A DNA stretch of 61,337 nt, taken from Vezdaea acicularis. Lineage: Eukaryota. A program made the position numbers and the translations under genes. Positions within the stretch are counted from its first letter, which is position 1, and every line of letters begins with the position of its first letter. The DNA is taken from positions 62,001-123,337 of the forward strand of contig JAPEUI010000046.1 in the NCBI GenBank assembly GCA_026025075.1. Reading direction: 5' to 3'. Positions 1,701 through 16,779 of this stretch are shown here, in pieces. A model generated the notes under the pieces. It was not told the DNA's origin, did no database searches, and worked only from the letters and a program-made list of their open reading frames with translations.

Positions 1701-4700
1701 TTATCTGTGCCCACGATATCCCCTATCATTCCTTGGCCCTTGATAGTACCCATTGTCTCTACCTCCCCCATGCCCGTAACCCTGTCCACCATATCCACCT
1801 CTAGCGCCTCCACCATAGCCTTCAACATATCCCCGTTGAGGTGGTGGAGGCGGGCCACCGTAGCCCTGCCCTGGCGGCGCATACCCAAAGTCCATACCCG
1901 GAGGAGGGCCAGCAATGGTCGGACCTCTAACCCCTGGCGGCGGCCCATAACTTTGTGGTGCGTTCCCAGACCCTGATTGATTTGAGTGAGGCCTCGTCTG
2001 GGGGCGGAAAAAGTCCGATCCGCGCCTCCTGCCTTGGAAATTATTATCGTTGTCGTAACCACCGCGAATTGGAGCGCCGCCATAGCTTCCACCTGATCGG
2101 CTGGCCATCGCTTTGATCTTTGCTTTGTCCGCTCCGTCGAGCTTTGCAGGTGGAAGTTGGACACCGGCGAGGAGCATCGATTTGTGGATATGGCTTGTCT
2201 TTGGAATTTCGTAAAAGGTGCTGTAAGAGCGTTAGCATTGAATGGTAGTGAGTGTATATTATCATAAAGTTACATACCTAATTGAATTGTCTGTCTCGAT
2301 GTCAGGCATGCTGCCACCCTGAAAAGGGAACATGAGTGAACCCTGAGGGATCGATGCTTCGTCTTTTTCAACTTTGCCGGAGAGGCCCTCGCTTATTCTG
2401 GGATTCAGCTTGAACTTCGGTGCGCCTTGTTTCTTTGAGAAGAAATTTGCGGCAATTTCGTTGTATAAGGGGTGGCTATCTGATATGAGGAGTGCGTCTT
2501 TTCCTACTGAGTTCCGAGTAGCTTCCTCCGTAGTTAGTTTGGGGTAGACCTTTTGCATGGCCGAGAGCAATTTGTTTTCGTCAATCCAAGGGAGAAGAGC
2601 GACACCTTGCCATGCGAACTTCTTTCCGTTCAAATCGACCACAAAATCCTCGGGATAGAACTCGATGATCTCGCTATCTTCATCCGTCATAAGCGGATGA
2701 AAGACTTTAGGCAATGTGTGTCTCGAGGCAGCTGGTAGAACTCCCATCAACTGCTCAAAGGGTCTGAACGGTTTTCCCTTTGCAAATGATACTTCCATCT
2801 TATCTAAATCCTTGAAGTCTGCTGCAAATGGCGCATAGTGATACGGATAATACCATGTCCAGGACGGGCAACCTTGGAAATAGTAGAGTAAGACCCAAGC
2901 CAACCCTTCTGCGTAAGCTCTTGCAACTTTGTGACGAAATTCAATATCCTTAGGATCAACGCCAAACTTTTGTTCATAATACCTATCTGCATAGCCATCT
3001 TCCCACAGCCTCACTGTATCAGGAGGAGGCTCATCACCCGTAGATTGAGGTGTGACTGGCGTATTTGGGGTACTGGAGTCTGTATCGTTATTCGCGTTGT
3101 CCTCCATTAGTTCGGCTTTGCGCTTTCCTAGGGCACTTTGTGGTGTCTGTGGTGCATCCCCACTTGTACTTGGAGCTTCTTTGGAATCTGCTGTGGTCCT
3201 ATGTAGCATTTGATCCTTCAGAATTGCAGCTGCGCTTCTATTTTCTGCATCGGCCTTTATGGTAGCGCCACGGTTGACCACCATTTCGTGGGTTAGTGCG
3301 TTTGCTTGTCTGCCGTCATTATCCTTCCCGGGCTTAAAGAGAGGCAAGTCGGGAGGTGCAAGCGTAGGATTGCCAAGGAAGTTACGACCGTTGCTTCGGC
3401 CTTGACCATTTGAAGAGAAATCATTGAAGCGACGAGCATTTCTATCATTTCTGTTTTGTTCCTCAATTTTCCTCCTTTTTGTATTTGCCTCTCTCCTTTG
3501 CTCTGCTTGTCTTCTGCGTCGGAAAATACCGTCTTCTAACTTGGCTAAGTCATCTAGGATATACTGAGCTCGTTTCATGTCGACCTGGCCGTCTTTCGTG
3601 ACATATCCACCCATGTTATGAAAGCTGTCCCTCCATATTCCGATCAGGGTGTCGATACCTTTGTCTCTGATATCCAAACTTGGAAGATGCGGTAGAAAGT
3701 CGTTACCAACAAAGAAGCACATGAAAACCCAATCATCTAAAGCTCGCTCGAGATCATTTGGGAAGTCAGGTATGTACATTTCTTCCTTGAGATATTCCCG
3801 AAGAACAGATACGTGGAGCCATATATATGGTTTATTTGGGGCAGCGTGCTGCTTTTCATCGAATTCACCCTGCTTCTTCTTCGCCGTGCCTTGGCATTCA
3901 TCGGCCTTGTGCCCTACCTGGCCACATATATGACAAGTTCGGGGTTTACTGTCTTGAGCAAAGACATCTTCGCGAAGTATGCGGAAGTGGGGCTCATGAG
4001 TAGCCAACCCAAGCATGATAAGATCAGCATCAAGACCATAAATCACATGCCGGGTATTGGGGTCATGCTGCGGGGACGATCTTTGTGATCGAATGAACTC
4101 CATGACCTTGTGCTCTCCCTCGCCAGGAACAGTGGCATCGGATATGATGACTTTAAGCTTCGCCCACGCAGGTTCTGTGTTCAACTTGTAGGCTGTCCAA
4201 TATCGAAGAGAAGAAGCCAGAATATCCATAAACGGTGTACCAGGTGTGATTGCATTACTGTCCCAAGTCTTTTGAGGCTTTGTTGGCCCACCATCATCCA
4301 CTTTTTTCCCGTCAGACTTCGCCTGAAACATCCTAAAGTACTCGGCTGCCTCCTCGTCCTTTTCCTTCGCCTCTTGGGCGGATCGAAATCGTCGCGAACG
4401 TTGCTGGTTCATTTTTGCTCTGGGAGCAACGCCATCTGTAAATAGAGAACGAATTAGCTTCAAATCATAAGGTATCTGAGGGACATAAGAATCTAAGACG
4501 TCGTACCCCCTCAAGATGTGTAGATTTCAGTGGAAACAGCAGCAAATCTCGAGGAGGATTTCTTTCTTCTCCACAGTACGATTCTTTGTTATATGAACGT
4601 ACCAACTGCAATCATCAACAGCTTCCTGGGACGGACCATGTTGACTATTCTCTCGGTATACTTGAATATTTCCATCATCATCTCTTGCTCCGTCTCTGGC

Positions 4701-5632: not shown

Positions 5633-8600
5633 ATGTTCGGGATTCTGCAAGGCCAAGCGCCAGCGAAGCAGACAGCCACCGACACAATCAATACCCTGAG
5701 TGCCCGACTTTCCACGGCAACATTGCTGGAAGATCGGCGAGCGGCGATACAAGGCTTGCGAAGCTTTGCTAGGGCATATCCCGCGTCGGTGGCCTCTGGA
5801 GCGTTACGGAACTTGATTGTGTGCCTAAGCAAGGATTCTGAAGATGTCGACACAGCTAAGGCTATATTGGAAACCCTGTTGATGCTTTTCCGGCCAGATG
5901 AGAATAGTGTATGGTATTTTGCTCAGAATACATGCTTAGTGAAGGGGCTAACTACCGTGGCAGCCGGAAGCTTCTGAGGATATTGCGTTTTGGCTAGCAG
6001 ACGAGTTTACTCAGGTACAGACTCTTTGCGATCAGGGATGGGACTTCCTATTGATAGTCGCTTAGAGACAAGATAATATAACTGTTCTTCTCGACCTTCT
6101 AGATCAGCCTGATTTCTTCTCACGCCTCTTATCACTTCAGCTATTAGGGTCCATCCGACTGGCAAGGGAAGAAAGGACGCAAGAATGTATATTAAACGCG
6201 CCCCTAGGGATATCGAGGCTTGCTGCCATCTTGGACGATAGACGGGATGCTATCAGGAATGGTGGGACAACATTGCTTCTAGCATCATGCTGCTGACGTA
6301 TTCGGAGTGCTGACATTTGTTAGAGGGTCTCTTACTGTTAGCAGGATTGACACCCTCCTCGTCTGAACTTCAAAAGCTAGTCGCATTTGAGAATGCCTTT
6401 GACCGCATCTTTAATATCATCAATACTGAAGGGGGGTTACTTCAGGGTGGCATTATTGTGCAGGATTGCCTCTCGTTATTAGCTAATCTCCTTCGCCTTA
6501 ATCCCTCCAATCAATCATTCTTTAGGGAGACCGGTTGTGTCGTCAAGCTTACCAAACTCATCAGCGACGTAGTGGGCCGACAGGATGTCGAGAATACTGC
6601 AGAATGGGAGAGGACGCAGAGTGATAAAAATCTGTGGGGGGTTCTTGCTGTATTGCGACTGTTTCTAGTTCAGGGAGGACTCGGCACTCAAGCAAATCAA
6701 AACTCATTTTGGCAAAGTGGGGTACTATTGCAAGTTCTGCAGCTTGCATTTAGCAAATCAACAGGTGTTACGATAAGAGCAGAGGTATGAAAGACACCAA
6801 TGTTTGAGGTTGGAGGGCGCCATTCACTGAATTCAAATTTTAGGCTTTGAAGACATGTGCAGATCTTATTAGAGGCAATCGAAGCCTTCAGGAAAGATTT
6901 GCACAGTTGCAGGTGAAGTCTCTTCTGGATGGTCACGATTCTTTGCCAAATGGCGACTCTCAGCAAAACGGTGTTCCGAAGGTTTATGTTGTAGATGGTC
7001 TCTTAGAAGTAACGCTTGCGGAGCACTCAAACGTTGCCTTTGATGCCCGGATAGCTGCCTGTGACTGCATCAAAGCATATATCTTCAACCACAACGAGAT
7101 CCGACAGCATTTCCTAGATCAAGCCATCAAAGTATATCTCTCAGGTGTTGGAGAAGTTACTAATGTTCTGACAGCGCTGTTGGTACCCGAAGACACTTTC
7201 AAAGCTAAAGATCCTTATCGACAATGGCTAGCTGCAGTCATTTTGATGCATCTAATCTACGACAACTCCTCCGCTAAGACAAAGGCCATGGGCGTAACTG
7301 AAGGTGATGCTGAGAGTGGTGAGGAGGTTGTCACTTTCATCCAGAGTTTGACTGGTATCCTTGTGGCGGGTATTGAAGCAAGAGATGATGAGCGAATTCC
7401 TGTGGGCTATCTGATGCTACTTTGCATCTGGATGTTCGAGGACCCTGACGCCGTCAACGACTTTCTTGGCGAAGGCAACAGCATTCAAAGTCTCGTACAA
7501 GCCGTTATACAAGGGGGAACTGATTTGGTTATTGTCCAAGGACTCTGCGCGATACTGTTGGGCATAATATATGAGTTCTCTACCAAGGATTCACCTATAC
7601 CTCGGGCAACTCTCCATCCCATCTTGGCATCACGTATGGGCCGTGAGCAGTATATTGATAGGATCACAAGGCTTAGAGAGCACCCGCTCTTACGCGACTA
7701 TGAGGTTCTCCCACAGAATCTTGATCCGGAGCAACCAACAGTGCTACCAGAGGTATACTTTGATAAATTGTTTGTCGATTTTATCAAAGATAATTTTAGT
7801 CGGTTGATACGGGCGATCGACAGAGATCCCGGAATGGAAATTCCGGTAATTGCCAACGGAATTCAAAAGGGAATTTCCAGAGAACTGGTGGACTCTTTAC
7901 GCACCCAACTTGAAGATAAAAGCCAATCACTGGAGAGCGCAAAAGAAGAATTGATCACGCTAGAAAGAAAGTTAGGGCAAGAGCAAGCCGACCACCGCAG
8001 ATCTAAAGAAACTGCAGCGGTCGAATTGAATAGAATTAAGTTCATCAACGAAAGCCTTCATAAAAGCCACAACGATCAGATCGACGAGCTTCAGAAAGAG
8101 CACGCGCGATCCATGGACCAAGCCCAGAAGCAATACCAGAGCTCGATCCAGGCAGTCGAAGCACAGCTCGATCAGGTCGGAAGAGAGGCGGACGAAGCAT
8201 TGAAGAAAGTGCGTGAAAGGCACGCTGCCGAAACCACAGACCTTAACGAACGAATCGCAGCATTGGAGGCCAACCTGGAGAAGGCCAACAAAGACCATAT
8301 ACAGGATCTGAAAATTGCTGACGAAGAATTCACGTCTCAGAGGTTGGCTCTGGAATCTCGCATGAAGAGAGCAGAAGAAAGGAGTGAGGAAGCAGAGACT
8401 CGAGCAAATCGAGCGGAACAGAAGCTTACTGAGGCCGAGTTCACGGCAGCAAAGGCCTGTAAATTAAGTGATGAGAACGAAGAAGCCCGAAAGGGCGTGC
8501 AGACGGAGCTTGATGATCTACTCATGGTTCTACAAGACCTCGAAGAGAAACGAACAAACGATAAGGTAAGTCCAAACCGTCCAGTTCTCATTGAGGGTGT

Positions 8601-8710
8601 AGCTGAAGAGGCAGCAGAAACGACTCAAGGCGCTTGGAGAAGAGGTCTCCGACGTGGAAGAGGATGAGGAGGAAGATGAAACGGAAGCTGGGGCTGATGA
8701 AGTTGATTGA
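5633..8710 (+). CDS. USO1: ER-Golgi vesicle tethering factor Uso1/p115
   Basis: ATLLEDRRAAIQGLRSF, QKLVAFENAFDRIF, IVQDCLSLLANLLRLNPSNQSFFRE, long C-terminal coiled coil, ELDDLL..L.DLEEK and acidic tail. Five canonical introns. Confidence 0.95.
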
Positions 8711-12071: not shown

Positions 12072-12983
12072 TCAACCATCAGGCCACCGATCCTTCTCCA
12101 ATGCTGCCCATGGATCTTCCAGAAAGCGAGGCGAGAAGTACACCATATCGCCGCGCTCGTTTCGCACGCCTTTCGCATACCGCGCCAGCTCTTCTCTGCT
12201 CATCCCTGTTTCGCCTCCAGTATTGGGCGTCTCAACTGCATTCTTGTCTGATCCGCCAGTGACGCCCTTGGAGTTGGGCACATCTTCAAGATTCAACCCT
12301 CCTTCCCCGTCCCTCTCGTTCTCATATCCATCCTTGAGAGTATCCAACCTGTCCACCTCTTTTCGAGCGACCATCGCCCCTTCCCGCGTACCGTCCCCCA
12401 TCCCTTTTGTGTTCCCAACCACGATCTCTTTCTCGGCAGCACGTGTCACCTCTCCCACCTTTGCCTCGCTTGTTCTAGGGCTAGATCCCTCGAATGCCGC
12501 CCATGGATCCTCGATGAAGCTGGGCTGGAAGTATACCATATCTCCTCTTGCATTCCGCACACCTTTCGCGTAAGCTGAGAGAGGAAGCTCGGTTCTATCT
12601 TCTTCGTTCAGAGCTTCTCCAGGCGCAATACCTCCCTTACCACCGGTCGGCACTGGAGGTCTGGGTGGTAGCCCCACAGGTCGTGTCAATTCTTTATTGC
12701 CCGGCCCGACCATCCCCTCCTCCTCCTTGACCATGCCCTCTCCGTATACACCCATATCCTCTCTGGAATGGTTATCTCCGGGCTTTTTCTGCTTTCGTTC
12801 ACCCAAAGCCATGGTATTCCCACCAGTGCCAACACTGGATGCATTTGGTGCGAGCACGGAATCTGTGCGGGGATTGAATTTTCGGCGCTTGGACGGTTGG
12901 CCGAAGCCGTTGAAGCCCATCAAGGAGAGAAGGGCTGGGTCTGCTTCTAGCTCATCATCGCTCATCGTGACTTTTGGGGTCAT
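12072..12983 (-). CDS. Uncharacterised low-complexity protein with an MGFxGFG motif, an NLS and two C-terminal YFxPxFxEDPW repeats (MPLKIP/TTDN1-like candidate)
   Basis: Intronless ORF; ATG at 12983 (or 12965); LMGFNGFGQPSKRRKF; motif duplicated with many synonymous differences, which indicates coding selection. Confidence 0.75.
   Translation of the reverse strand: MTPKVTMSDDELEADPALLSLMGFNGFGQPSKRRKFNPRTDSVLAPNASSVGTGGNTMALGERKQKKPGDNHSREDMGVYGEGMVKEEEGMVGPGNKELTRPVGLPPRPPVPTGGKGGIAPGEALNEEDRTELPLSAYAKGVRNARGDMVYFQPSFIEDPWAAFEGSSPRTSEAKVGEVTRAAEKEIVVGNTKGMGDGTREGAMVARKEVDRLDTLKDGYENERDGEGGLNLEDVPNSKGVTGGSDKNAVETPNTGGETGMSREELARYAKGVRNERGDMVYFSPRFLEDPWAALEKDRWPDG
12099..12580 (-). repeat. 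Intragenic duplicated ~28-codon module
   Basis: AYAKGVRNARGDMVYFQPSFIEDPWAAFE (~12490-12575) versus RYAKGVRNERGDMVYFSPRFLEDPWAALE (~12096-12184). Confidence 0.9.
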
Positions 12984-13298
12984 GGAGCGTTGTGTAACGC
13001 TAGGGTGGAGGTTGGATAAGACTTGTGGGAGCGTTCGAGAGCTCCGAAGGCATAGCAGACGGGAGGTAATTGGAGGAGAAAGGCGCGCTACTAGATCAGC
13101 ATTGAGATCTATGTGTTTACCTAGTGATATGCTGACTTCAAGCTCCAAAGATAAGAAAAGCCTAGAGTACAATAGTCATTTCGTTCCTTAGTGTATGACA
13201 GGTGCGTGATGACGCAGTGTTGAAAAAAAGATGCTCGGCTCCGTAACTTCGAAGTTTTCCCCCGCAACCCCGCGATATACCATCAGATTTGCAACACG

Positions 13299-16200
13299 AT
13301 GAAGCAGCGATTCTCCTCGCTGGACGTCAAGGTGTGCTAGCCCTGGTTGGACTTCAACAATCGTATCACGACTGACTCAAGCCACCTTATAGGTCATAGC
13401 TCACGAATTATCTAATTCGCTTTGTTCCCTTCGTCTCGCGAATGTCTACGATCTCTCTTCTGTATGTTCCCACCCCTTCACGCACCCCAGCACTTTCCCA
13501 GAGCTAACCTTTTATAAAACAGCGCATCTTCCTCCTCAAGTTCGCAAAACCAGGCACAAAGCACCAAGTCATCCTCGACTCCGGTTTCCGCTGCCACCTC
13601 ACACGCTTCACCCGTGCCCCCGCCGACCAGCCTTCCGCCTTTGTCATCCGCCTTCGCAAATATCTGAAGACTCGCCGCATCACTGCAGTACGGCAGATTG
13701 GTACAGACCGTATAATTGAGTTCGAGTTTGGCGATGGTCTGTACCGCCTCTTCCTGGAGTTCTACGCCGGCGGGAACGTCGTGCTTACGGACAGGGAGCT
13801 GAATGTCTTGGCCGTGTTGAGGATTGTGAGTGAGGGCGAGGGTGGAGAGGTGGTAAGAGTTGGTGTGAAGTATGGATTGGAGAACAGGCAGAATTATCCC
13901 ACGACGCCGGAGCTGACAAAGGAGAGGGTGAAAGAGGGTCTAGCAAGGGCGGTGGAGAAGAAGTCGGAGGGAGAAGGAAGCAAGAGAAAAGGCAAATCGA
14001 GGCCGGGAGATGCATTGAGGAAGGCATTGGCTGTCAGCATCACCGAGCTGAGCCCAATGGTGGTGGAACATTGTCTTCTCACTAGCAAATTTGACCTAAG
14101 CTTGACGCCAGAAGACATCATTAAGGACGATGCCTCGTTGGATGATCTTCTGGCGTCCCTCAAGAAGGCAGAAAGTTTGGTTCAGGAGATTATGAGTGCG
14201 GAAAAAATTGAAGGATACATCATTGCAAAGCCTCGCAAGAGTAATTCGGGCGTCAGAGATTCAACAGAACCTTCAGATTCGACTGACACCCCCTCTCTCA
14301 TGTACGACGATTTTCACCCCTTTCGACCTGCGCAATTTCTCTCCGACCCTAACGCAAAGATCCTCCCCTTCTCCGGTTTTAACAGCACCGTCGACGAATT
14401 CTTCTCGTCTATTGAAGGACAAAAACTCGAAGGCCGACTTGCGGAACGGGAAGAGACAGCCAAAAAGAAACTTCTGGCTGCAAAGAGAGACCAGCAAAAC
14501 CGGCTTGGTGGTTTGCAAGAACTACAAGAGTTGAACGAACGCAAGGCACAAGCTATCGAAGCAAACGTGGAGAGGGTAGAAGAGGCGATAGGCGCCATCA
14601 ACGGCCTGTTAGCTCAGGGCATGGATTGGGTGGAGATGGCAAGGCTAATAGAGATGGAGCAAGCAAGGGGCAACCCGGTGGCTAATACGGTGAAGTTGCC
14701 ATTGAAGCTGTACGAAAACACAATTACACTTGCGCTCGGAGAGCCGGTGTTTGGGGAAGACGAAAGCGACGAAGGAGATAAGACTGACAGTGATGTGCCT
14801 GAGAGCGATGAGGAAGACAAGAAGAAAAACCTTAAAACTCAGAATGCGCCATCTGCCAAAAGCAAGACGCTAAGCGTGGATGTGGACCTTGCGCTCTCGC
14901 CCTGGGCCAATGCTCGACAATACTACGAGAATAAACGATCGGCAGCGGAGAAAGAGCAGAAGACGTTGCAGTCATCTTCGAAGGCGTTGAAGAGTACGGA
15001 ACGTAAAGTAGCGGCGGACCTGAAAAAAGGCCTGAAGCAGGAGAAGGACATATTAAGGCCGGTTCGGAACCAGCATTGGTTTGAGAAGTTTTTCTTCTTT
15101 GCCTCTTCAGATGGCTATCTTGTCCTCAGGTAAGACTAACTTCTCTAGTCGTTGATCTTAGAGGTGATGAATTGCTGACCGGATTTAGCGGAAAGGATGC
15201 GCAGCAAAACGAAATGTTATATCGACGCCACTTTAAGCGCGGCGATGTCTACGTACACGCCGATCTTGCTGGTGCCGCTATAGTCATCATCAAGAACAGG
15301 CCCTCGACTCCAGATGCATCAATCCCTCCTTCCACCCTCTCCCAAGCTGGAAACCTCTCCGTAGCAATATCTAAAGCCTGGGAGACAAAAGCAGTCATGT
15401 CCGCCTGGTGGGCTAATGCAGATCAAGTTACAAAGCTCACGCCGCAAGGAGACTACCTTCCTGTTGGAGAGTTTCTGGTCAAAGGCAAGAAGAACTTCCT
15501 GCCACCAGCTCAATTGTTGTTGGGATTTGGCGTGCTCTTCCAGATCAGCGAGGAAAGTAAGGTCAACCATACGAAACATAGAGTTAAGGAAGACATTGGG
15601 GAGACAGCCACAGATAAAAAACAAGAGGATGATGTTGAGGACGGGTCTGAACAAGGCTCATCTCACGATGAAAATGACGCTCATGAAGTTCTTCAAGAGG
15701 AAAGTGAGGAGGAAGATGAGGACTTCCCTGATGTCCAGCTCGAGTCTGACTCCGATGATGAGAAAGAAGAAAGTCGCAACCCTCTAGTCAGGCACACCCC
15801 ACTAAAGTCCTCGAAACCAATTCAATCCCAACGACAGGACCTGAGGGAGGTGTCAGTAAGACAAAAGCCTAATAGTCATAAAGAAAATCTCGTCCCACCC
15901 CACGTCCACAAAGAGCACGAACCTGAAAATCGACCGCTTAGAGAGCGAAATGATCATTCAGAAGATGAAGGTGACTCGTCGGACGGATCACATGCATCGG
16001 GTCCTCCTAGTCTTACTACCGCAAAACCCCCTCCAAAAGGAACCTCCATACCCATGAGTAAAGAAAATAAAGATCGACCTGCTGGCCCCCCAAAACGCGG
16101 CAAGCGTGGTAAGAACAAGAAGCTCGCCACAAAATATGCCAATCAAGACGAAGAAGACCGCGCCCTTGCTATGGCGCTCCTCGGCTCCGCTGCCGCAAAA

Positions 16201-16779
16201 GAAAAAGCTTCCGAAGAAGCGCGGGCAAAGGAGGCTCGAGAGAAAGAACTTGCCTTCCAAAAGCAGCGGCGGCGCGATCAGCACCTGAAAACTGAACGCG
16301 AGGGTAAAGAGGCCGAAGCATTGCGCCAGCAGCAGTTCGCTGGCGACACCGAGGCAGACGCAGAAGACGAAGCTACGACGCCCTTTCCAGACCTGGATTT
16401 GTTCGTGGGGACGCCACATCCAGCCGATACGCTAGTAGCGGCGCTGCCCGTGTGCGCGCCATGGAATAGCATGGGACGGTACAAGTACAAAGCAAAGCTG
16501 ATGCCTGGCGCCCAGAAGAAGGGGAAGGTCATAAAGGAGATACTGCATTTCTGGGTTGGGGAGGGGAACCAACGGATGGTGGATACGAAGGGGGAGGATA
16601 TTGAGAAGGTGTGGCCGCGGGAGATGGAGCTCATTCGCGGGTGGAGGGATGTAGAGGTTGTAGGAACCATAGGAGTCGGGAAGTGTAGGGTTAGTATGCC
16701 CGGAGCGAGGGGCAAGACGGCGCCAGGGGAGAGGGGTGGGAAGGGGAAAAGGGGGGGAAGGGGGAGTAAGAAGAAGTAG
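13299..16779 (+). CDS. RQC2: Ribosome quality control complex subunit 2 (Rqc2/Tae2/NEMF)
   Basis: MKQRFSSLDVK start, GTDRIIEF, LEFYAGGNVVLTD, WFEKFFFFASSDGYLVL, GKDAQQNEMLY, YVHADLAGA, C-terminal PVCAPW..KYKAKLMPG. Three introns. Confidence 0.96.

Follow-up and report, generated by a model that had tools for sequence, protein, structure and literature searches.

How the lariat-debranching enzyme Dbr1 reaches lariats that have just been excised is known only in part, and work on the adaptor TTDN1 (MPLKIP) has been framed around animals and plants. A 61,337-nucleotide stretch of the Vezdaea acicularis genome (GenBank assembly GCA_026025075.1, contig JAPEUI010000046.1, forward-strand positions 62,001 to 123,337; hereafter the window, in whose own numbering coordinates are given) raises the same question for fungi: on its minus strand lies a gene for a small protein that carries two copies of an EDPW-containing block reminiscent of the C-terminal core of human TTDN1 and Arabidopsis SICKLE (SIC). 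Is this protein a fungal relative of the two, and what would a second block be for? On sequence grounds the gene is a true fungal representative of the TTDN1/MPLKIP/SICKLE family, and we favour, with moderate confidence, a model in which its product is a nuclear tether, built from short linear motifs and bivalent in this lineage, that brings Dbr1 to spliceosomes. The features on which the argument turns are the following.

12072..12983, minus strand: TTDN1/MPLKIP-family protein-coding sequence, 303 residues from the first ATG, stop codon at 12072-12074 (open-reading-frame listing and translation)

12870..12962, minus strand: N-terminal module, residues 8-38, comprising an acidic stretch, DPALLSLMGFNGFG and the basic KRRKF, a putative nuclear localisation signal (conservation and profiles)

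12900-12920, minus strand: MGFNGFG

12879-12890, minus strand: KRRK

12795..12830, minus strand: second conserved family motif, residues 52-63, GTGGNTMALGER, of the form G-(T/S)-G-(A/G)-N-x-x-(P/A)-L-G-x-R

12489..12581, minus strand: MPLKIP-type motif copy 1, residues 135-165, LSAYAKGVRNARGDMVYFQPSFIEDPWAAFE, with the best Pfam stretch at residues 151-172

12189..12488, minus strand: linker between the copies, residues 166-265, an open, G/E-rich frame with no detectable similarity to the family profile

12096..12188, minus strand: MPLKIP-type motif copy 2, residues 266-296, LARYAKGVRNERGDMVYFSPRFLEDPWAALE, second domain found by the family profile and DNA repeat

A preliminary description of this locus had proposed an unrecognised fungal counterpart of TTDN1 and SICKLE, and profile similarity was the first test that it set. 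Pfam MPLKIP (PF15502, InterPro IPR028265) matches the window protein in two stretches with an expectation value (E) of 3.6e-10; at 40.3 bits the match exceeds the gathering score of 28.9 bits, so that this part of the proposal holds. Single-copy relatives score 16.5-28.9 bits against the same model, with one of the 38 scanned reaching the cutoff; the window protein passes because the scores of its two copies add up. A first protein search returned 13 relatives of 177-320 residues and 33-73% local identity, one of them from the lichen fungus Squamulea, each with one C-terminal block and a conserved N-terminus. A 10-member profile run against a 1.84-billion-protein library then retrieved 721 cluster representatives at E<=0.001 (433 at E<=1e-10), the best 150 of which are the 150 members to which the family statistics below refer, and a 144-member profile found 463 proteins in a second collection. 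Among the best 120 of these 463 every named protein is an ascomycete one labelled "hypothetical" or "uncharacterized", and the organisms named include Hortaea, Friedmanniomyces, Bipolaris and Cenococcum, presumably Dothideomycetes.

The family consensus begins M-D-D-x-E-I-D-P-x-I-A-A-A-M-G-F-S-S-F-G-x-Q-x-x-K-K-R-K-(F/Y), followed by G-A-N-x-x-P-L-G-x-R, and after a variable disordered stretch closes with L-x-A-L-R-x-G-V-R-N-x-x-G-D-x-x-Y-F-L-P-S-F-x-E-D-P-W, a short way before the stop codon. In the C-terminal block F156 and P160 (window-protein numbering) are invariant across the 150 members, and E158, D159 and the motif tryptophan nearly so. The window protein reads S-F-I-E-D-P-W in copy 1 and R-F-L-E-D-P-W in copy 2, with phenylalanine at the methionine position; both copies retain the E-D pair needed for DBR1 binding in human TTDN1 and the core that was mutated in Arabidopsis SIC. 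At E<=1 MPLKIP matches 143 of the 150 members, and no competing family falls on the EDPW block. A comparison of 10 members shows N56 to be invariant in the second conserved motif, with G54, L60 and G61 nearly so, and N56 is still nearly invariant among the 150. A third element, (A/Q)-P-x-G-L-A-x-F-L-x-x-G-x-x-L-P, was seen in four relatives (P0004, P0005, P0014 and P0007) and is not clear in the window protein. Four Aureobasidium melanogenum models (P0009, P0011, P0012 and P0013) join a Con-6 (PF10346) conidiation protein, encoded by the upstream gene, to a TTDN1-like N-terminus; they are probably merged neighbouring genes and were left out of the alignments.

Whether the family deserves to be called unrecognised is a matter of degree. 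Its members do carry the labels hypothetical or uncharacterized, a lack of descriptive names consistent with their sub-cutoff MPLKIP scores, but the Arabidopsis SIC preprint, citing InterPro IPR028265, states in its available text that the MPLKIP core occurs in fungal proteins. No characterised fungal TTDN1 was found in the literature searched, and Supplementary Figure 7 of that preprint may show fungal members. In the PDB, neither the window protein nor the family profile found a TTDN1 chain, the whole window protein yielding only a chance match to MurD (E 1.6).

The coding frame itself is straightforward. Its 303 codons are uninterrupted on the minus strand, no intron candidate of the form GTRNGY...YTRAY...YAG lies inside 12072-12983, and the gene appears intronless; alternative splicing of the two motif copies was considered and rejected for want of any such candidate. 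No RNA run was found among the sequencing runs that contain the stretch. The second ATG (M7, position 12965), which would give 297 residues, is more likely to be the start because orthologues begin M-D-D... at this position, and a 297-residue database model (P0002), 100% identical to the window frame, also starts there. Glycine, glutamate and proline make up 32% of the residues. An AlphaFold2 model based on a 150-sequence alignment has a mean predicted local distance difference test score (pLDDT) of 59.7 and a predicted template modelling score of 0.24, in keeping with the disorder claimed in the preliminary description; pLDDT reaches 70 or more at 70 of the 303 residues, and the confident islands are the N-terminal peptide (~74), copy 1 (76-91) and copy 2 (67-72). 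The protein is thus MPLKIP-like in its general character as well, being small and otherwise disordered with a motif near its C-terminus.

What sets the window protein apart from its relatives is the doubling of that motif. The two copies described earlier are present in the translation, VYFQPSFIEDPWAA at residues 150-163 and VYFSPRFLEDPWAA at 281-294, as are LMGFNGFG (residues 21-28) and KRRK (32-35), and the repeat extends beyond the limits first given to it: it covers 31 residues, L-x-x-YAKGVRNxRGDMVYFxPxFxEDPWAAxE, at 135-165 and 266-296, with 24 of 31 identical (counted from the codon table) and both copies ending in (I/L)EDPWAA(F/L)E. At the DNA level 12489-12572 and 12096-12179 are 76% identical over 84 nucleotides, and the copies are offset by 393 nucleotides, that is 131 codons in frame. 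Local self-alignment of the protein halves scores 154, against 33.6 +/- 6.0 (maximum 66) in 300 shuffles, which bears out an internal duplication beyond chance. With the motif removed the halves are not significantly alike (39 versus 35.3 +/- 6.5, equalled by 272 of 1000 shuffles), nor does the linker show significant self-similarity; a larger duplication that also took in the GANxxPLGxR motif was rejected, as no significant similarity extends beyond the block. Within the 31-codon block 12 codons differ synonymously and seven by replacement, and over the 35-codon span 133-167 the nonsynonymous divergence (dN) is 0.29 and the synonymous divergence (dS) 2.69, a synonymous excess because of which we regard the duplication, from these sequence comparisons, as old and both copies as being under purifying selection.

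The arrangement is that of an extra C-terminal module placed behind a complete orthologue-like unit. A search with the family profile (hmmsearch) delimits a first domain at residues 4-175 (134 bits), the whole unit including copy 1, which occupies the place of the single motif of orthologues, and a second at residues 247-298 (62.6 bits), with no match from 176 to 246. Copy 2 is followed by seven residues (11 by another count) before the stop codon, the usual C-terminal position in a family whose members end a median of seven residues past EDPW, and the frame stays open across the 131 codons that separate the copies. In the AlphaFold2 model both copies share a pattern of short helix, two-residue hairpin and helical turn, the block at 141-150 in copy 1 reaching a pLDDT of 91, and the linker lies mostly at 43-55 with a low-confidence helix at 201-221. 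The count of repeats in relatives, which the preliminary description had proposed, shows the doubling to be unique in the set compared: none of 244 other family proteins has two blocks, 238 having one and six none by the pattern used, and among seven metagenome loci (the best 36% identical) six reading frames have one block each and none has two. In an earlier set of 157 proteins, those that failed a stricter pattern were truncated or variant forms. At one of the metagenome loci (L007:546-1207) the MGF peptide and the C-terminal motif match in different reading frames, a sign that this contig may contain an intron or a frameshift.

Such uniqueness invites the suspicion that the two-motif form is an artefact, the metagenome assembly having joined two variants, or a recent read-through past copy 1, and that the organism makes a single-motif protein. 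Six DNA runs in Logan contain parts of the stretch, three of them (X1-X3, from one study) holding 71-91% of the sampled words. No Logan contig bridges both copies or covers the entire stretch, so that the copy-to-copy junction rests on the window's own assembly: in X1-X3 contigs break between the copies at ~12329-12385, ending at 12385 or 12329 and restarting at 12359 or 12369, and in all three runs the left contig is shallower than the right (6.4 versus 9.67, 5.1 versus 7.3 and 3.9 versus 5.5, about 0.7-fold), possibly through a co-occurring variant that diverges at the break. This depth step, the missing bridge and the single-copy state of the 244 other members and seven loci are what an artefact would predict. 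On the other hand, the pieces flanking the break overlap by 27 nucleotides in X1 and 17 in X2; all Logan pieces fit the window with at most four differing letters each; the join is in frame; and contigs at 12359-13300 (X1) and 12359-13277 (X3) continue for 43 codons past copy 1 without a stop, far beyond the median of seven at which orthologues end. By chance a frame would stay open over 131 codons with a probability of about 0.002, (61/64)^131, and copies that differ at 24% of their bases with a strong synonymous excess are not a collapsed or duplicated stack of reads. We consequently hold an artefact to be very improbable.

The N-terminal module, for its part, points to the spliceosome. Residues G23, F24, F27 and G28 are invariant across the 150 members, with A19, M22, R34 and K35 nearly so, and the AlphaFold2 model places a short helix at residues 16-21 (pLDDT ~74). 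A profile of this region (38 positions, 24 members), searched against 177,635 distinct PDB sequences at E<=10, gave exactly three matches, all of them spliceosome proteins: ZMAT2 (residues 176-197 of 199, E 2.2e-07), WDR70 (residues 14-33 of 654, E 0.042) and SNRNP27 (residues 97-121 of 155, E 1.6), in entries 5o9z, 6zym and 6qw6/6qx9, which we take to be those of the B complex, the C complex and the tri-snRNP (small nuclear ribonucleoprotein)/pre-B particle, respectively. The whole-family profile at the same threshold returned two, ZMAT2 (3.3e-05) and WDR70 (1.7). Pfam concurs, in that SNRNP27 (PF08648) matches 65 of the 150 members (best E 4.3e-05) and is the sole recurrent second family, every other listed family matching one member each. 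The resemblance of the MGFxxF peptide to SNRNP27 that had been noticed at the outset is thereby confirmed for the family, and the peptide is closer still to the C-terminal tail of ZMAT2. In two members with a listed SNRNP27 match, residues ~9-37 align with positions 4-32 of the 56-position profile at 17.3-19.5 bits, below the cutoff of 23.1. In the ESM Atlas, residues 8-62 gave best scores of 0.82 and 0.79, the second a WDR70 cluster, which we treat as a lead.

The three human segments share a terminal peptide of the type acidic-AxxMGFxGF(G/D)-basic. In the ZMAT2/Snu23 tail, the WDR70 N-terminus and the first half of SNRNP27, as in the fungal family, an acidic run leads into (D/E)-x-x-(A/M)-A-x-MGF-(S/T/A)-(G/S)-F-(G/D) and a basic stretch. 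The window protein lacks the zinc finger of ZMAT2, the WD40 propeller of WDR70 and the RS domain and M141 loop of SNRNP27, and belongs to none of these families; membership of SNRNP27 in particular was rejected, as the full 56-position domain with its M141 loop is missing and the motif alone is shared. We regard the N-terminal peptide, from this pattern of matches, as a candidate spliceosome-docking peptide.

A rival account would take MGFxxFG-KRRK for a signal of a generic kind, for nuclear import or chaperone binding, or for a degenerate MGF loop like that of UBA domains, found in unrelated nuclear proteins, and would have the adaptor reach lariats through Dbr1 only. The peptide is short, the WDR70 and SNRNP27 matches are weak, and in the literature searched no partner of the peptide is described for ZMAT2, WDR70 or SNRNP27, "MGF motif" denotes UBA domains, the strings MGFSGF, MGFTGF, MGFxGF and MGFSSF do not occur, and WDR70, ZMAT2 and SNRNP27 are nowhere treated together. 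Yet the three PDB matches out of three and the sole recurrent second Pfam family are all spliceosome proteins, and the ZMAT2 match is significant and covers the acidic lead-in together with the A-x-x-MGF-x-GFG core rather than MGF alone. As to UBA, neither it nor any other Pfam domain scores at E<=10 on the peptide, and the AlphaFold2 model has only a single six-residue helix before MGF; that version was rejected. The generic signal is a real possibility, to which we give less credence than to docking.

In the tether model that we prefer, the C-terminal block (GVRNxRGDMVYFxPSFxEDPW) would bind Dbr1 in the manner of its homologous counterpart in human TTDN1 and Arabidopsis SICKLE, KRRKF would act as a nuclear localisation signal, and the N-terminal peptide (acidic stretch-DPxIAxAMGFxxFG) would dock the adaptor onto spliceosomal particles; ZMAT2/Snu23 carries the same peptide at its C-terminus, WDR70 at its N-terminus and SNRNP27 where its conserved domain begins. 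The in-frame duplication within the gene, with its offset of 131 codons, has on this model given the lineage a second Dbr1-binding block, and since both copies are kept under purifying selection, a single adaptor molecule may bind two molecules of Dbr1, or one of them with greater avidity. We infer Dbr1 binding exclusively from experiments on the human and plant proteins, and it would be the parsimonious ancestral role, as animals and plants bracket the fungi; the docking reading is drawn from the ZMAT2/WDR70/SNRNP27 pattern, and docking, nuclear import and a functional effect of bivalency are likewise our inferences.

The experiments in question bear on the very residues that the fungal family conserves (glutamate and aspartate nearly invariant, phenylalanine and proline invariant). 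As given in the available text of the Townley et al. preprint, direct binding of human TTDN1 to DBR1 requires its conserved C-terminal region CR1-2 and needs no other part, E146 and D147 have an important share in it, the patient mutation M144V lies in the core, and loss of TTDN1 raises lariat abundance ~8- to 24-fold. In Arabidopsis, replacement of S-M-A-E-D-P-W by alanines abolished both the two-hybrid interaction of SIC with DBR1 and complementation in vivo, according to the accessible part of the SIC preprint, and TTDN1 increases human Dbr1's catalytic efficiency 19-fold in the accessible part of Clark et al. The Dbr1 of Fusarium graminearum is reported, in the part of the source at hand, to have 544 residues including a C-terminal domain, which makes a filamentous-fungal Dbr1 long enough to contain a TTDN1-responsive region. 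A Pfam scan of 32 reading frames of the window turned up no gene for Dbr1.

Set beside these known adaptors, the fungal protein is familiar at one end and distinct at the other. Human TTDN1 is likewise short, largely disordered and nuclear, its C-terminal core (...P-S-x-x-E-D-P-W...) matches PF15502, and a separate N-terminal part links it, in the available accounts, to the spliceosome. Those accounts describe an aromatic-rich, prion-like N-terminus that binds the intron-binding complex, whereas the fungal family has the acidic-MGFxxFG-KRRK peptide; the position of M144 is phenylalanine in the fungi, their block has its own conserved upstream extension, GVRNxxGD, and the window protein has two blocks to the one of TTDN1. 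If it docks, the terminal peptide would do for the fungal protein what the N-terminal region of human TTDN1 does through its link to the intron-binding complex. SICKLE, in the accessible descriptions, is likewise nuclear, and rich in proline; the MPLKIP core is the one part of it that is widely conserved, and through this core, which lariat turnover in vivo requires, SICKLE binds DBR1. It differs in being a ~35-kDa protein conserved across angiosperms with a single motif, and those descriptions mention no MGFxxFG peptide. Drn1/CWF19L1 offers a parallel in role, a Dbr1-binding protein without catalytic activity that promotes the turnover of branched RNA (PMC10470207, in its available text), but is folded and described there as homologous to Dbr1, and the window protein has no Pfam similarity to it.

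Several observations weigh against the tether model. Apart from the junction between the copies, which no Logan contig bridges, 37 of the 38 single-copy relatives fall below the MPLKIP cutoff that the window protein passes by summing its copies, and the match spans only ~17-22 core positions (23-44 of 64). The window protein itself strays from the family consensus at its N-terminus (LLSLMGFNGFG), and Pfam SNRNP27 does not match it at E<=10. M141, the SNRNP27 residue of known function, which sits between H1580 of PRP8 and H734 of SNU66, lies outside the matched part (97-121), so that its mechanism is not transferable. TTDN1 is reported in the available text of Clark et al. to have no effect on Entamoeba Dbr1, which lacks the disordered C-terminal domain, and binding therefore depends on features of Dbr1. 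Synteny is uninformative, relatives adjoining HEM4, Erv1 or hydrolase genes rather than NFACT.

Part of this evidence would also suit a family that is merely a motif-level look-alike of TTDN1 and SICKLE, its EDPW block binding another nuclear or RNA-processing factor. The short Pfam match and the low scores of most relatives fit such a case, as do the alignment of the conserved fungal extension (L-x-A-L-R-x-G-V-R-N-x-x-G-D) to the Pfam model in only two of 38 relatives, the restriction of TTDN1 conservation to metazoans stated in the accessible part of the Townley et al. preprint, and the dependence of TTDN1 action on a Dbr1 domain that some eukaryotes lack. Against it stand the fact that the most conserved residues of the fungal family are those on which mutation experiments in humans and plants showed DBR1 binding to depend, the MPLKIP matches of almost all members with no rival family on the block, and the second conserved peptide, which points to the spliceosome, where the substrates of Dbr1 arise. 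We consider a look-alike unlikely, and retain the Dbr1 tether as the better account.

A bolder extension of the tether would have, in filamentous ascomycetes, a single spliceosomal pocket used in turn by SNRNP27K (tri-snRNP/pre-B), ZMAT2/Snu23 (B) and WDR70 (C) and lastly by the adaptor that brings Dbr1, the peptide replacing the prion-like tether of metazoans like an interchangeable plug and the Dbr1-binding end being doubled here. We put it forward as a speculation that is doubtful in its entirety.

The surroundings of the gene add little. An NFACT/Rqc2-type gene at 13300-16776 on the plus strand (NFACT_N, NFACT-R_1 and NFACT-C) is divergent from the TTDN1-like gene, the two start codons lying ~320 bp apart, and Velvet, PRT6_C and other families in the window are fungal. 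On the other side an Xrn2/Rat1-type 5'-3' exoribonuclease gene at 2265-4526 on the minus strand lies ~7.5 kb from the TTDN1-like gene, with a gene for a Uso1 head-domain protein at 6844-8664 between them. Compared with proteins of 1321-3770 residues, mostly fused gene models, the Xrn frame is closest to Leotiomycete models at 64-66% identity. Enzymes of the Xrn2/Rat1 class degrade debranched introns; a functional reading of the neighbours, the Xrn2-type gene included, was nevertheless rejected, as the neighbours of relatives differ, and the proximity is taken to be a coincidence.

Family membership as such is ordinary, and the interest of the locus lies in the peptide shared with spliceosomal proteins and in the naturally occurring bivalent form, as hypotheses on the recruitment of Dbr1. 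Relative to the literature searched, two things are new: the family-wide pairing of an MPLKIP block with a terminal peptide of the ZMAT2/WDR70/SNRNP27 type, and, in this lineage, the variant with two blocks. The annotation of fungal genomes, where most members score below the cutoff and are labelled hypothetical, would gain from a profile made for the family. For a large ascomycete family the pairing offers a concrete docking hypothesis that can be tested in genetically tractable fungi, and it suggests that ZMAT2, WDR70 and SNRNP27 have in common a short linear motif not yet described, and the natural two-motif variant provides a ready test of whether the valency of Dbr1 binding matters.

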